Source of the DNA: an uncultured Anaerolinea sp.
GTDB taxonomy: Bacteria; Chloroflexota; Anaerolineae; Anaerolineales; UBA4823
Assembly (NCBI GenBank): GCA_964503625.1
Contig: CAZDAU010000002.1
Coordinates: 32,768-96,767 of the forward strand
Direction: 5' to 3'
Length of the DNA stretch: 64,000 bases
Positions 19,454-24,389 of this stretch are shown here, piece by piece. The notes below the pieces were generated by a model. The model was not told the origin of the DNA. It ran no database searches and saw only the letters and a list, made by a program, of their open reading frames with translations. Position numbers and translations under genes: made by a program. How positions within the stretch are numbered: the stretch's first letter is position 1; each line of letters opens with the position of its first letter.

Positions 19454-20476
19454 ATGGCTGCCGAGCTGCGCGATTCCCCGGTCTTCATCTGCGGTCATCC
19501 CAAGGCGGGCACCAGCCTGCTGCGAGCGATCTTTGATTCCCATCCGCAGCTGGTAGTTTATCCGGAGGAGACCGTGTTCTTCCGCCGATTCCTTCCCCGT
19601 TCTAAAGATCTGGATTTGCAGGGGCTGCTGGCGCTGGCGGAGGAGACTTTGATCCACATTTTCCGCTGGCGTCGAGATAAGCCGGATGCCAGCCAGTCCG
19701 GTTTTCCTGATCGGGACTATTCGACGATCTCGTATGATCAGGTCAACCGGGCGATGCGCCGGTTGGCAGGCGAGCGCTGCCGGCACGCTGGCGATATTCT
19801 TTCGGCGGCGGTGCTGGCTTATGGGCAGGTGAGCGATTTGGCGACCCCATCCACTCGCGCCTGGGTGGAAAAATCGCCCTACAACGAATATTATGCTGAG
19901 CAGATTTTTGCCTGGTGGCCCGGGGCGCTGTGTATTCATATCCTGCGCGACCCGCGGGATAACTACGTCTCTTACCGCCGCAAGCACCCTGACTGGCGGG
20001 CGGAATTTTTTGCTGCCAACTGGCGGCGCTCCACCCGCGTCGGTCAGGTGAACCAGCAGCGCTTTGGTTCGCAGCGTTATCACATGCTTCGCTACGAAGA
20101 CCTGGTGCAATCGCCTGAAGTGACGCTGAGCAAGTTGGCCGCCTTTCTGGGAATTGAATGGGATCCATCTTTGGCCGACCCAACCCGTGCTGGCGAGCAA
20201 TGGGCTGGTAATTCGATGTTTGCCGACCAGTTCCGAGGCATCAGCGCAGCGCCGGTGGCGCGCTGGCATGAGAAGCTTTCCCTGGAAGATGCGGCGGTTA
20301 TTGAGCAAATGGCGGGCCAACAGATGGAAATCTATGGTTACGCACGTGAAATTGCCGGCGCTGCCGCGCTGGTTGCCCGCGGGCGCGCCCTTGCCTGGCC
20401 ATTGCGCCGCCGGCTTTCCCGCTTGTTGCAGCCGGCGCCCACGCTGGACCACTCAAACGATCGCACGGATGAGTGA
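19454..20476 (+). CDS. Sulfotransferase (ST1)
   Basis: 5'-phosphosulfate-binding loop ICGHPKAGTSLL and 3'-phosphate-binding region HILRDPRDNYVSYRRK. Confidence 0.85.
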   Translation: MAAELRDSPVFICGHPKAGTSLLRAIFDSHPQLVVYPEETVFFRRFLPRSKDLDLQGLLALAEETLIHIFRWRRDKPDASQSGFPDRDYSTISYDQVNRAMRRLAGERCRHAGDILSAAVLAYGQVSDLATPSTRAWVEKSPYNEYYAEQIFAWWPGALCIHILRDPRDNYVSYRRKHPDWRAEFFAANWRRSTRVGQVNQQRFGSQRYHMLRYEDLVQSPEVTLSKLAAFLGIEWDPSLADPTRAGEQWAGNSMFADQFRGISAAPVARWHEKLSLEDAAVIEQMAGQQMEIYGYAREIAGAAALVARGRALAWPLRRRLSRLLQPAPTLDHSNDRTDE

Positions 20477-20488
20477 TCATCACCGTGC

Positions 20489-21556
20489 TTGAGCAGCGCG
20501 AATCCGGATCAAGAGACTGGTATGCCCTATTCCCTTAGTCAACGTATTGCCCTGGCTTTGCGCATCCTGCGCCGGGGTGATGCTCCGCCATCTGCCCGTC
20601 GGGAGGTGCCGCCCATCACCCTGGATGAGATTTCCGAAGTCAGGACATTCTTCCCGCTGGACAAGTTCTTTGTTTTCGGCCACGCTCGCTCGGGGACGAC
20701 GATGCTGACGCGCCTGGTCCGTCTGCACCCAGAAGTGCATTGCGATTACCAGGCCCATTTCTTCACCCGTTCTCCGCTGCTTGAGAGCCTGGTGGCGGAT
20801 GCCGAAGTGGGCGAATGGCTCTCGCGCGGCAGCAACCGCTGGAACCGTGGCAAAGATCTGTCGCCGGTTGTTTTGCGCGTTGCTGCCGATTACATCCTGG
20901 AGCGCGAGGCGCGCCGGGAAGGCAAGCGCATTGTCGGTGATAAGAGCCCCAACAGTCTGCTGGATGGCGAAGCAGTGCGCCTGATGCACAAGGTATATCC
21001 AGATGCCCGACTGATCTATATCGTGCGCGACGGGCGGGATGCCGTGGTTTCGCACCGTTTTCAGTCTTTTATTGAATTTCCGGAGCGGCTTTCCAAGGAA
21101 GACCAGCAGTTGCGCGCCCGGTTTGCTCGCGCCCCGCAGCCTTTCTTATCTGGGGAGCAGTCGATATTTACCCAGGCGGCCATCACCCGCGCCGCCCAGG
21201 GCTGGGTCCGCAACGTCACTCAGACCGACCAGGAGGGGCGGGAGCTGTTCGGCGAACGCTACCTTTCCCTGCGTTACGAAGACCTGCTCCACCAGCCCTG
21301 GGAGCAGATGCGCCGGGTATGGGAATTCTTGGGCGCTTCTCCGGCGGACGAAGATCTGCACCAGGCGTTGCTGGCTGAAATGACCCGCAATCCCGACGCC
21401 GATTGGCAGCAGCAAAAAGCCAAAGATATTGCCCAATCGCTGCAGAAAGGCAAGCGGGGTTCCTGGCGCGAGCTGTTCACCCCTCGCGACCGGCAAATCT
21501 TTCGCCAGTTTGCTGATGAAACGCTGCTTGCCTGGGGATACGAGGCCACGCCTTGA
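20489..21556 (+). CDS. Sulfotransferase (ST2)
   Basis: VFGHARSGTTML, YIVRDGRDAVVSHRF and GSWRELFTPRDRQIF. TTG start at 20489 from the ORF track; the first ATG is at 20522. Confidence 0.85.
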   Translation: MSSANPDQETGMPYSLSQRIALALRILRRGDAPPSARREVPPITLDEISEVRTFFPLDKFFVFGHARSGTTMLTRLVRLHPEVHCDYQAHFFTRSPLLESLVADAEVGEWLSRGSNRWNRGKDLSPVVLRVAADYILEREARREGKRIVGDKSPNSLLDGEAVRLMHKVYPDARLIYIVRDGRDAVVSHRFQSFIEFPERLSKEDQQLRARFARAPQPFLSGEQSIFTQAAITRAAQGWVRNVTQTDQEGRELFGERYLSLRYEDLLHQPWEQMRRVWEFLGASPADEDLHQALLAEMTRNPDADWQQQKAKDIAQSLQKGKRGSWRELFTPRDRQIFRQFADETLLAWGYEATP

Positions 21557-22544: not shown

Positions 22545-22553
22545 TGCTATAAT
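22545..22553 (+). promoter_or_regulatory. Extended -10 promoter element TGCTATAAT upstream of sat-cysC
   Basis: Exact TGnTATAAT in the 69-nt spacer between 22539 and 22608. Confidence 0.5.
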
Positions 22554-22607
22554 TGCCGCTTGTGCTATCAAGCGAACTATTGAACTATTTGAAGGAGATT
22601 TTTATTC

Positions 22608-24389
22608 ATGCCTCAGAAGTATAAAAACGAAAATTTGATCAGCCCTTACGGTGGTAAGCTGGTCAACCTGGTTGCTACCGGCGAGGAGCGCCAGGAGCTT
22701 TTGGCCCGCGCCACCAAGCTGCCTTCTGTGCAGATTTCGGCGCGCGCCCTGTGCGACCTTGAGCTGCTGGCGACGGGCGCCTTTTCGCCGCTGGATCGTT
22801 TCATGGGCAAGGCGGATTACGAGCGCGTACTCACCGAGATGCGGCTGAGTAACGGTGTGTTGTTCCCGATCCCGGTTGCCTTGCCGATTGATGAAAGCGC
22901 TATGCCCAGCTGGGGCGAGGCAATCACCCTGAACGATGCCCGCAACAACACCCTGGCGATCATGCAGATTGAAGAAGTGTACCATTACGATCCTCAGCGC
23001 GAAGCCCGCCTGGTCCTTGGAACCACAGATCCCAAACATCCGCTGGTCTCTGAGATGGTCCGTTGGGGTAAGGTCTATGTCTCCGGCGAGCTGAAGGTGA
23101 TCAACCTGCCGATCTACCATGACTTCATCGAGCTGCGCCGCACCCCGGCGGAGGTGCGCGCCTTGTTGGAAGAGATGGGCAATGCCAATGTAGTGGCTTT
23201 CCAGACCCGCAACCCAATGCACCGTATCCACGAAGAGCTGACCAAAAGGGCAGCCGAAGAGGTGGGGGGCAGCTTGCTGATCCACCCGGTGGTGGGGATG
23301 ACTCGGCCCGGCGACGTGGATCACTACACCCGCGTGCGCGTCTATCGCGCTCTGGCCGAAAATTATTACGATCAGGAACGCACTCTGCTCAGCCTTTTCC
23401 CGCTGGCCATGCGCATGGCCGGCCCGCGTGAAGCGCTATGGCATGCCATCATCCGCCGCAATTACGGCGCCAACCACCTGATCATTGGGCGCGATCATGC
23501 TGGCCCAGGCAATGACAGCCAGGGCAAGCCTTTCTATGGCCCCTATGAGGCCCAGCAAATGCTGGCGCAATATGCCGGTGAAATTGGCGTCAAGCCGGTT
23601 GAGTTTAAAGAGTTGGTTTACCTGGCAGACGAGGAACGCTACGAAGAAGTCACCAAAGTCCCCGAGGGGGCTCGGGTCTTTAATATCTCTGGCACCCAGG
23701 TGCGCGAGGATTATCTTGCTAAGGGCAAGCTTCTGCCGGAGTGGTTCACCCGCAAAGAGACGGCAGAGATCCTGCAGCAAATGTACCCGCCGCGCCACAA
23801 GCAGGGCATCTGCATCTGGTTCACTGGTCTGAGTGGCTCGGGCAAGTCCACCACTGCCGAGGTGCTGACGTCTCTCTTGCTCGAGCGCGGCCGTCAGGTT
23901 TCGTTGCTGGATGGCGATGTGGTGCGTACCCACCTTTCCAAGGGGTTGGGATTCTCGCGTGAAGATCGCGATACCAACATTCTGCGCATCGGCTATGTCG
24001 CCGGTGAAATTGCCCGCCATGGCGGCACGGTCATCTGCGCAGCTATCAGCCCCTATCGCGCCACCCGCAACGAGGTGCGCAAGATGGTGGGCGAGAATTT
24101 CATTGAGGTATTTGTGGATACGCCGATCGAGGTTTGCGAGCAGCGCGATGTCAAGGGTCTGTATGCGCGCGCCCGTCGCGGCCAGATCACCGGCTTCACC
24201 GGCGTGGATGACCCCTATGAGTCCCCGGTGAACCCAGAGATCATCCTGGACACAGTCAACGCCGACCCGACCACGAACGCCCGCAAAATTATTGACTTCC
24301 TCGAAGAACGCGGTCTGCTGTTGCCGGTTAACGGCAAAGAAAAAGGTGAGGCAACCGAAGCGCTGCAGCCAGCAGCAGCCGTTGCCTGA
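22608..24389 (+). CDS. sat-cysC: Bifunctional sulfate adenylyltransferase / adenylylsulfate kinase (PAPS synthase)
   Basis: ATP-sulfurylase motifs [11 protein letters not shown] and [11 protein letters not shown]-terminal APS kinase with P-loop [15 protein letters not shown] and [27 protein letters not shown]-like region. AGGAG Shine-Dalgarno upstream. Confidence 0.93.

Follow-up and report, generated by a model that had tools for sequence, protein, structure and literature searches.

A PAPS synthase inside a conserved Anaerolineae glycan module and its probable role in sulfating a surface glycan

Why would an enzyme that makes 3′-phosphoadenosine 5′-phosphosulfate (PAPS), the donor used by sulfotransferases, be encoded in the middle of a sugar operon? 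The question is raised by a stretch of 64,000 nucleotides of contig CAZDAU010000002.1 (hereafter the window), for which an initial annotation had claimed a fused ATP sulfurylase/adenosine phosphosulfate (APS) kinase, five sulfotransferases and a heavily sulfated, glycosaminoglycan-like polysaccharide. We assigned domains to the 56 open reading frames (ORFs) of the window using Pfam gathering scores and NCBIfam equivalog cut-offs. The window forms a single co-directional locus for a cell-surface glycoconjugate, from an Anaerolinea-like Chloroflexota bacterium, and its PAPS synthase lies inside a module that is conserved across the Anaerolineae. All 56 plausible genes are on the + strand; 46 of the 55 gaps between them are ≤50 bp, and 22 neighbors overlap or abut (gap ≤0). 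The glycan machinery comprises two Wzm/Wzt pairs, about 12 glycosyltransferases (GT2, GT4 and GT-C), four methyltransferases and rmlABCD. The ulosonic-acid genes encode two NeuB, three CTP_transf_3, two Capsule_synth and one MptE-like protein.

The PAPS synthase and sulfotransferases of the window

The gene at 22608-24389 encodes a bifunctional ATP sulfurylase/APS kinase (Sat-CysC), henceforth PAPS synthase, in which Pfam recognized PUA_2, ATP-sulfurylase (279.6 bits) and APS_kinase (214.5 bits) domains. The protein passes the bifunctional-enzyme equivalog NF004040 with 865.8 bits (cut-off 669), and its parts score above the cut-offs of sopT (466.7 versus 322.95) and apsK (214.7 versus 138.7). 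The catalytic motifs, among them those quoted in the initial annotation, are intact: a QxRNPxHxxH-type motif at residue 199, GRDHAG at 294, GLSGSGKS at 407 and DGDVVR at 435. The fused enzyme that the initial annotation had placed inside the glycan cluster is thus borne out. Proteins on Joint Genome Institute (JGI) metagenome contigs are 100% identical to it. Pfam detected no PAPS reductase, sulfite reductase or sulfate transporter among the 56 ORFs of the window.

Five ORFs had been proposed as sulfotransferases with PAPS-binding motifs, and the Hidden Markov Model searches suggested as a check placed all of them above the Pfam gathering scores (22-27 bits). We refer to them as ST1 (19454-20476), ST2 (20522-21556), ST3 (35154-36017), ST4 (36625-37524) and ST5 (44658-45614). 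ST1 (110.6 bits), ST2 (90.7 bits) and ST5 (49.4 bits) match Sulfotransfer_3; ST3 (40.2 bits) and ST4 (37.2 bits) match Sulfotransfer_1. The boundaries first given for ST2 correspond to the longest ORF (20489-21556), whereas public gene calls start the gene at an ATG at 20522, which yields 344 amino acids (aa). The motifs are also present in the five translations. From ST1 to ST5, the 5′-phosphosulfate-binding loops read HPKAGTS, HARSGTT, MPKSGSH, FPKSGTH and AHRTGTT. The 3′-phosphate-binding strand is RDPRD in ST1, ST3 and ST4 and RDGRD in ST2; ST5 has the variant RHPAAFASS, in which the Arg and Ser are kept. Residues H20, R21, G23, T24, T25, R146 and S154 of ST5 are invariant in 45 homologues. 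GHARSGTT, VGDKSP and RDGRD of ST2 are at least 90% conserved in 48 orthologues, as are PKSGSHL and YRDPRD in 27 ST3-like relatives. Scores and motifs confirm the five ORFs as members of the PAPS-dependent sulfotransferase superfamily, with catalysis predicted. Searching all window ORFs of ≥60 aa in six frames with sulfotransferase-family profiles returned no sixth member.

The five proteins are as diverse as had been suggested. ST3 and ST4 are paralogues with 44% identity, and we count four sulfotransferase lineages because all other pairs are ≤23% identical or undetectable. None of the five has a transmembrane segment, and they must therefore act in the cytoplasm. We tested the fold of ST3 and ST5 with AlphaFold2 models. 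The ST3 model has a predicted local distance difference test (pLDDT) score of 91.9, and its top 50 Foldseek matches in the Protein Data Bank (PDB) are all PAPS sulfotransferases, the nearest being cytosolic sulfotransferases (SULTs). For ST5 (pLDDT 86.3), the top 50 matches are all PAPS- or PAP-binding proteins with the sulfotransferase fold. Its nearest structures are tyrosylprotein sulfotransferases (TPSTs), the CurM sulfotransferase and mycobacterial Stf1/Stf9. The best PDB sequence match of ST2 is tyrosylprotein sulfotransferase 2 (E = 6e-8), and the best solved relatives of ST1 are, with weak similarity, CurM and the olefin-synthase activating sulfotransferases.

Metagenomic relatives are numerous, with more than 3000 in the ST2 family, more than 1600 for ST3 and more than 5300 for ST5. 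Their names among the matches listed are generic or automatic only: “hypothetical protein”, “sulfotransferase”, “Sulfotransferase family”, “LPS sulfotransferase NodH” and “sulfotransferase 6B1”. The best 120 matches listed by the protein searches are all at least 63% identical, and those with a source name come from Anaerolineales or Chloroflexota.

Conservation of the PAPS synthase neighborhood

We scanned one genome per GTDB species for the PAPS synthase and retrieved 230 relatives, of which the best 80 were used for synteny counts. These 80 are 69-94% identical to the window protein and all come from metagenome-assembled genomes (MAGs) of Anaerolineae/Chloroflexota, the closest being labelled Anaerolinea sp. 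and another (L078) belonging to Brevefilum fermentans. Loci were compared by matching every ORF against the window proteins, and sulfotransferase counts are based on first-round homology hits. A second round was discarded because it brought in about 35 false members via an 868-aa in-frame ORF in one locus (L023). That frame (2213-4816 of L023) joins a conserved TagF-like protein of 480 aa to a sulfotransferase domain, and is either a real fusion or two in-frame genes.

The surroundings of the PAPS synthase are strongly conserved. A GFO/IDH/MocA (GFO) oxidoreductase, which in the window is PtmF-like and lies at 21553-22539, stands beside the PAPS synthase in 61 of the 80 loci, and the full order ST2-GFO-PAPS synthase was found in 47 species. 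On the other side, the PAPS synthase is adjacent to a short-chain dehydrogenase/reductase (SDR) and a CMP-sugar synthetase in 61 of 80 species. Of the 40 loci with at least 9 kb of flanking sequence on both sides, 38 have a sulfotransferase no more than 10 kb from the PAPS synthase; with at least 3 kb, the count is 51 of 57. In the more distant half of the loci, 24 species have an ST3-like gene as the next gene after a short NeuB. In 16 species such a gene has NeuB before it and the Capsule_synth transferase after it, and the stop and start codons of these neighbors often overlap. ST3 and ST4 of the window have no NeuB next to them and follow a presumed sugar-tailoring block. ST1 orthologues co-occur with orthologues of the GT2 upstream of ST1 (GT2 a), and ST5 in relatives has GT2 genes on either side.

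The arrangement varies among relatives. One locus with an 83% identical PAPS synthase (L085) keeps the order DUF4910-ST3-ST4-GT2-CMP-synthetase-dehydrogenases-MptE-PMT-GT2-ST5-GT2-GH78-...-rml. A more distant one (L086) keeps MptE-PMT-GT2-ST5, with a Wzy_C protein and another sulfotransferase added. Three loci that at first seemed to be without the module (L048, L057 and L063) share a similar layout. In the rearranged L048 and L057, a short sulfotransferase lies immediately 3′ of the PAPS synthase, with an epimerase, GHMP kinase or phosphomannomutase nearby. Recurrent neighbors of the PAPS synthase that have no homologue in the window are PMT-like GT-C proteins (34 loci), TagF-like proteins (23), a protein of no known family (17) and methyltransferases. 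The PMT-family GT-C (about 530 aa) stands directly 3′ of the PAPS synthase in 34 species, including L045 and L082, and the PMT_2 protein of the window is encoded 17 kb further downstream. In L051 (8432-15116), the PAPS synthase is outside the glycan operon, with a DDE transposase on its 5′ side and, on its 3′ side, a sulfite-oxidase-type molybdoenzyme and a large GT2.

A comparison of related genomes had been put forward as a check, and across the 80 species it shows the PAPS synthase embedded in the same sugar operon and accompanied by sulfotransferases; genes of sulfate assimilation do not recur nearby. The clade-wide conservation of the module and its coupling to nonulosonic-acid genes go beyond the initial annotation.

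Predicted sulfation of a surface glycan

What, then, is the PAPS for? We consider it probable that the locus provides a dedicated PAPS supply for the O-sulfation of a lipid-linked glycan, rich in nonulosonic acids and rhamnose, before ABC export. A locus-dedicated supply for several distinct sulfotransferases, already proposed from the window, is the best reading and is strengthened by the synteny in 80 Anaerolineae species. The PAPS synthase would convert sulfate and ATP into PAPS in the cytoplasm, and the five soluble sulfotransferases, from four unrelated lineages, would use it to O-sulfate sugars during glycan assembly. Assembly is expected to take place on a lipid carrier at the inner membrane face, and the sulfotransferases would act there on lipid-linked intermediates or on sugar precursors. 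The predicted glycan would contain up to three ulosonic or nonulosonic acids activated with cytidine monophosphate (CMP), residues derived from dTDP-rhamnose, and sugars added by the GT2 and GT4 enzymes. It would also be O-methylated and probably N-acylated. Export by Wzm/Wzt would be followed by attachment to the wall, a protein or a lipid. Gene order suggests partners for the individual steps: ST1 with GT2 a, ST2 with the GFO oxidoreductase and the PAPS synthase, and ST5, beside the GT-C, with the two GT2s between which it lies. Those of ST3 and ST4 would be the pair of NeuB and ulosonic-acid transferase in relatives and the tailoring block in the window. Dozens of related species keep the core of the locus, and a sulfated acidic glycan on the surface of these abundant bacteria is therefore probable.

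Several observations weigh against this explanation. The window has no initiating transferase, ligase, CysQ or sulfate transporter, and in L038 and L051, two of the 40 fully flanked loci, no sulfotransferase is found up to 10 kb from the PAPS synthase. The nearest solved relatives of the sulfotransferases are tyrosylprotein, polyketide and cytosolic small-molecule enzymes, not polysaccharide enzymes, and acceptor specificity is not readable from their sequence or fold. The absence of PAPS reductase, sulfite reductase and sulfate permease from the neighborhoods of the 80 loci refers to the recurrent neighbor families, which are the ones that were annotated. Our analysis covered the window and the flanks of these loci, and the PAPS synthase may have an additional assimilatory role in the cell. 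Finally, the sulfated Anaerolineae glycan is a prediction from gene content.

A sharper version of this explanation, which does not contradict it, makes the nonulosonic acid itself the main sulfation target. ST3 and ST4 would then sulfate a hydroxyl of the NeuB product, as the free sugar, as the CMP-sugar or just after transfer. We regard this as possible but doubtful. It would agree with the position of ST3-like genes after NeuB (24 species) and, often overlapping, before the Capsule_synth-type transferase (16 species), with the resemblance of that transferase to KpsC and to the Tannerella family that transfers pseudaminic acid (Pse) and legionaminic acid (Leg), and with the likeness of the ST3 model to cytosolic small-molecule SULTs. 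The window offers two further hints: ST3 and ST4 come after the presumed sugar-tailoring block, and the presence of PseB with an RmlD-like reductase but without PseC would leave a hydroxyl in place of the Pse amine. However, adjacency does not define an acceptor, the fold similarity of ST3 is moderate and at family level (template modeling score about 0.55), and ST3 and ST4 are not next to NeuB in the window. A literature phrase search for sulfated bacterial nonulosonic or ulosonic acids returned nothing relevant, and animals are, to our knowledge, the only source from which sulfated sialic acids have been described. The sulfotransferases, or some of them, might instead act on acceptors other than glycans, such as tyrosines of surface proteins (TPST/RaxST-like), a lipid (like mycobacterial Stf) or a small metabolite. 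The similarities of ST2 and ST5 to TPSTs, of ST5 to CurM and Stf1/Stf9 and of ST3 to SULTs point in this direction, and the PMT-like GT-C genes hint at a protein-linked product. Yet these similarities are weak and at family level (14-20% identity), every sulfotransferase gene is wedged among glycosyltransferase or sugar-pathway genes, and the cluster has no candidate peptide or lipid-synthesis genes. We consider this unlikely.

The PAPS synthase could also serve mainly in housekeeping, with PAPS as an intermediate of assimilatory sulfate reduction and a position in the glycan operon that is incidental or convenient. Bifunctional Sat-CysC enzymes do serve assimilation in other bacteria, and among the 80 loci no genome is represented by more than one PAPS synthase of this type. 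Sulfate adenylyltransferase was found in 53 of 55 salt-marsh Anaerolineae MAGs and read as sulfur metabolism (PMC11748557). A purely housekeeping enzyme is nevertheless quite unlikely because of the synteny: sulfotransferase and ulosonic-acid genes flank the PAPS synthase over 69-94% identity, rearranged loci keep a sulfotransferase directly 3′ of it, and PAPS reductase, sulfite reductase and sulfate transporter are missing both from the window and from the recurrent neighbors. Very improbable, in our view, is a transient sulfation in which the sulfate ester is a leaving group in sugar tailoring, as in CurM/LGS1 chemistry, and the mature glycan is low in sulfate. The solved relatives of ST1 would be compatible with it, as would L038, where the PAPS synthase remains in the ulosonic-acid operon with no sulfotransferase within 10 kb. 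The similarity to CurM-type enzymes is weak, however, five separate enzymes are hard to account for in this way, and we know of no precedent for sulfate as a leaving group in sugar biosynthesis. Hardly credible is a glycosaminoglycan-like polymer of uronic acids and hexosamines, the product that the initial annotation had favored. Several sulfotransferases with a PAPS supply would suit such a polymer, and dye assays detected sulfated “GAG-like” material in sludge extracellular polymeric substances (EPS) (PMC10483923). The claim is unsupported because the window lacks uronic-acid and glycosaminoglycan-synthase genes: Pfam found no UDP-glucose 6-dehydrogenase, glycosaminoglycan synthase or C5-epimerase domain in the 56 ORFs, and the acidic-sugar pathways present are of the NeuB/CMP-synthetase type, accompanied by a rhamnose pathway. 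Flagellin glycosylation was rejected, as flagellar genes are absent from the window.

Within the preferred explanation, sulfation of a lipid-linked surface glycan, some of what had been claimed for the product goes too far. Terms such as “heavily sulfated” or “unusually sulfate-dense” are not readable from gene counts, nor is the number of sulfates that a repeat would carry. A single polysaccharide is not established either: a protein- or lipid-linked glycan is equally possible, and with two Wzm/Wzt pairs the window perhaps encodes more than one glycan.

Sulfated-capsule clusters are already known as a kind. Vibrio sp. KMM 8419 and Cobetia marina KMM 1449 have chemically proven sulfated capsules, including sulfated rhamnose (PMC11641403, PMC11766843), and these solved structures make the statement that such polymers are documented for only a few bacteria outdated. 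According to the same papers, PAPS genes and sulfotransferases in one cluster are a hallmark of sulfated polysaccharide synthesis (PMC11641403, PMC11766843). Their clusters share with the window a large ABC-export cluster, an rml operon, PAPS synthesis within the cluster and sulfotransferases (one to three in theirs). They differ in being strain-specific Gram-negative Kps-type clusters of group 2/3 (KpsMTED, KpsSC) that make PAPS by CysDN/CysC (cysNDC), whereas the window has Wzm/Wzt pairs, a fused PUA_2-type Sat-CysC, five sulfotransferases and three CMP-ulosonic-acid pathways, in a module kept across the whole class. Chloroflexota are generally described as single-membraned. Cobetia polysaccharides reportedly also contain sulfated 3-deoxy-D-manno-octulosonic acid. 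As in the window, the rhizobial NodPQ/NodH system encodes a dedicated PAPS supply beside its sulfotransferase. NodPQ is of the CysDN/CysC type, there is one sulfotransferase, and the acceptor is the lipo-chitooligosaccharide signal made by NodABC. A Nod-factor-like signal was rejected for the window, which has neither nodABC nor CysDN-type NodPQ. New features are the host lineage, conservation throughout the clade, coupling to nonulosonic-acid genes, the fused enzyme of the Sat type, and five sulfotransferases from four lineages.

Other systems are similar in part. The synechan (xss) cluster of Synechocystis PCC 6803 likewise directs the synthesis of an extracellular polysaccharide and encodes sulfotransferases of distinct subfamilies; sulfation was demonstrated there (PMC8205485). 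It differs in using the Wzx/Wzy pathway, in having two sulfotransferases and no ulosonic-acid genes, and a PAPS-synthesis gene within the cluster is not mentioned (PMC8205485). With clusters for legionaminic and pseudaminic acid (PtmA-LegF-PtmF-PtmE-LegH-LegI; PMC4481668), the window shares a PseB equivalog, NeuB-family synthases, CMP-synthetases, a PtmA-like SDR, a PtmF-like GFO oxidoreductase and an MptE/Maf-like protein. Its Capsule_synth-type transferases are weakly similar to BFO_1060/Tanf_01245 of Tannerella forsythia (PMC5420450) and to KpsC. Unlike those clusters, the window has no PseC/LegC and no flagellar context, its NeuB and CMP-synthetase proteins score below equivalog cut-offs, and its pathway operon also contains genes for a PAPS synthase and sulfotransferases. 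The animal enzymes that sulfate sialic acids are Golgi membrane proteins, whereas the sulfotransferases of the window are soluble and cytoplasmic, and we know of no shared ancestry between the two sets. If a nonulosonic acid is the acceptor, PAPS-dependent O-sulfation would give a residue resembling the sulfated sialic acids of animals (PMC9304399), the bacterial case being hypothetical.

Anaerolineae rank among the most abundant of the uncultured bacteria that live in sediments, subsurface waters and anaerobic reactors, and their surface chemistry has been essentially neglected. They appear in the literature as degraders, not producers, of sulfated polysaccharides (PMC9723792, PMC12555021), and our literature searches found no link between Anaerolineae and sulfotransferase-based glycan synthesis. 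From a clade-wide operon that joins PAPS synthesis to sulfotransferases and nonulosonic-acid genes, we predict a glycan that is sulfated and sialic-acid-like. In its most specific form, an envelope glycan made throughout the class, with nonulosonic residues O-sulfated by a SULT-like ST3/ST4 family whose translation is coupled between NeuB and the ulosonic-acid transferase, this prediction is speculative. If true, the polymer would be a phosphate-free, strongly anionic component of a wall or sheath. Sialylation and sulfation of granular-sludge EPS were detected by chemical assay, BLAST with reference sulfotransferases returned almost no producers, and, according to the authors, no bacterial pathway to sulfated glycoconjugates is known (PMC10483923). 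The locus supplies candidate genes for such producers, and the “sialylated and sulfated” glycoconjugates of sludge could have a microbial source in this glycan. The near-universal sat of Anaerolineae, which has been counted as sulfur-cycling potential (PMC11748557), would then be a marker of glycan sulfation and not of sulfur respiration or assimilation. For metagenomics this is a caution and a testable alternative, since sat in this lineage is part of a glycan operon. The four sulfotransferase lineages are uncharacterized families with thousands of metagenomic members, and might provide enzymatic tools for glycan sulfation.

Ulosonic-acid, tailoring, export and rhamnose genes

The remaining genes of the window indicate from which sugars the glycan may be built. 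Capsule_synth-type transferase 1 and methyltransferase 1 (9776-12362) precede the first ulosonic-acid set, which consists of PseB (12359-13357), an RmlD-like reductase (13435-14358), NeuB homologue 1 (14434-15501), a GT4 (15549-16706) and CMP-sugar synthetase 1 (16742-17521); gene starts from 12359 to 17521 were taken from public gene calls. PseB passes TIGR03589 (493.7 bits, cut-off 407.75). The two NeuB homologues (238.9 and 251.8 bits) fall below the PseI cut-off of 340.25, the first also below that of NeuB, and the best PseF score in the window is 170.1 (cut-off 205.7). Pfam found no PseC-type or any other aminotransferase domain in the window. Of the canonical pseudaminic-acid pathway (PseB-C-H-G-I-F), PseB is present, PseC is absent, and PseI and PseF are below equivalog level. 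With PseB and an RmlD-like reductase in the absence of PseC, the product would keep a hydroxyl where pseudaminic acid carries an amine, and the genes at 12359-15501 may make the 7-hydroxy analogue rather than pseudaminic acid.

Between this set and ST1 lie a conserved protein of 303 aa (17527-18438) and GT2 a, which together span 17527-19451. The 303-aa protein is soluble and has no match in Pfam, NCBIfam or the PDB; it is found, at 50-81% identity, directly upstream of a GT2 in most of the 80 related loci.

The second set follows the PAPS synthase and comprises a PtmA-like SDR (24477-25364), CMP-sugar synthetase 2 (25365-26102), NeuB homologue 2 (26147-28099) and Capsule_synth-type transferase 2 (28071-29777). 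Together with the GFO oxidoreductase, its SDR, CMP-synthetase and NeuB recall the legionaminic-acid set PtmF/PtmA/LegF/LegI (PMC4481668). In the window and its closer relatives, the C-terminus of NeuB homologue 2 is fused to a xylose-isomerase-like TIM barrel (AP_endonuc_2). In a distant locus on a complete chromosome (L082, OW818655.1, locus positions 14251-16368), a short NeuB of 293 aa without the SAF domain is paired with a fusion of CMP-synthetase and HAD phosphatase; other distant loci likewise have a short NeuB of roughly 295 aa. The fusion in L082 suggests a sugar-phosphate route there, of the type used for ketodeoxynononic acid or neuraminic acid 9-phosphate (Kdn/Neu-9-P). Judged from its genes, the conserved module thus seems to yield ulosonic acids that differ between sub-lineages.

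The Capsule_synth proteins weakly resemble KpsC (E = 0.002) and the T. forsythia family for transfer of Pse/Leg derivatives (NF046086, 41.6 bits, below cut-off), the weak NCBIfam match of the first being to this BFO_1060 family. The MptE-like protein has weak NCBIfam similarity to PseD and WaaZ. We count three candidate ulosonic-acid transferases because both Capsule_synth proteins and the MptE-like protein resemble such families.

The tailoring block (29774-35132) encodes methyltransferase 2, a carrier protein, a ligase homologue, a GNAT protein, an AAC(3)-type N-acetyltransferase and a DUF4910/DUF2172 protein. Within it, at 30762-32214, the gene for a phosphopantetheine-type carrier of 83 aa (30762-31013, a public gene call) overlaps that of an amino acid:[carrier protein] ligase homologue (31003-32214), which is like an atypical seryl-tRNA synthetase (PDB 3mey, Bll0957; E = 7.8e-41). 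The carrier and ligase beside the GNAT and AAC(3)-type proteins suggest aminoacyl decoration of the glycan or nonulosonic acid. Methyltransferase 3 (36022-36609) separates ST3 from ST4. Between ST4 and ST5 (37517-44670) lie GT2 b, CMP-sugar synthetase 3, a 2-hydroxyacid dehydrogenase, a second SDR, the MptE/Maf-like protein, a PMT_2 membrane glycosyltransferase of the GT-C type and GT2 c.

The two Wzm/Wzt pairs stand at 7552-9803 and 46427-48053. Wzm1 (7552-8442) is an ABC2_membrane permease. Wzt1 (ORF 8139-9803, true start probably near 8440) combines ABC_tran with Wzt_C, the C-terminal carbohydrate-binding domain, which is lacking in Wzt2. GT2 d, Wzm2 and Wzt2 occupy 45619-48053, and L085 has no second pair at the equivalent position. 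The second pair may be an additional exporter for a single glycan, or the window may encode two glycans.

The rhamnose part (48057-62728) consists of a GH78-like protein, two proteins of no known family, rmlC-B-A-D, a methyltransferase-GT2-GT4 protein and two GT4s. The GH78-like protein (969 aa, α-L-rhamnosidase six-hairpin fold) has one N-terminal transmembrane or hydrophobic segment; its gene lies between exporter and rml genes (48057-53952), and has the same position in L085. One of the two no-family proteins after it has about seven transmembrane segments and a faint arabinofuranosyltransferase-like match. The three-domain protein downstream of rmlCBAD (57431-60406, 991 aa) presumably resembles the WsaE-type enzymes that build or cap chains in ABC-dependent pathways for rhamnans and S-layer glycans.

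The main cluster opens with a winged-helix regulator of the HTH_24/MarR type (6100-6612) and an NAD-dependent sugar epimerase (6605-7555). The 119-bp gap before the first of these genes contains a sigma-70-like promoter (6052-6079, + strand, TTGACC-16-TATAAT, 11/12 matches), a consensus match only. An Rfam scan of the whole window returned no matches. Upstream of the promoter-like site, at 971-5980, two large proteins of no known family (707 aa with about 10 and 624 aa with about eight transmembrane segments) flank an LPG_synthase_TM-family membrane protein and are preceded by a GT4; the two may be envelope glycan ligases or polymerases. At the right edge, the C-terminal part of an AMP-binding enzyme of the acyl/aryl-CoA ligase type (63104-63907) is the sole convincing minus-strand gene, and the glycan locus probably ends there.

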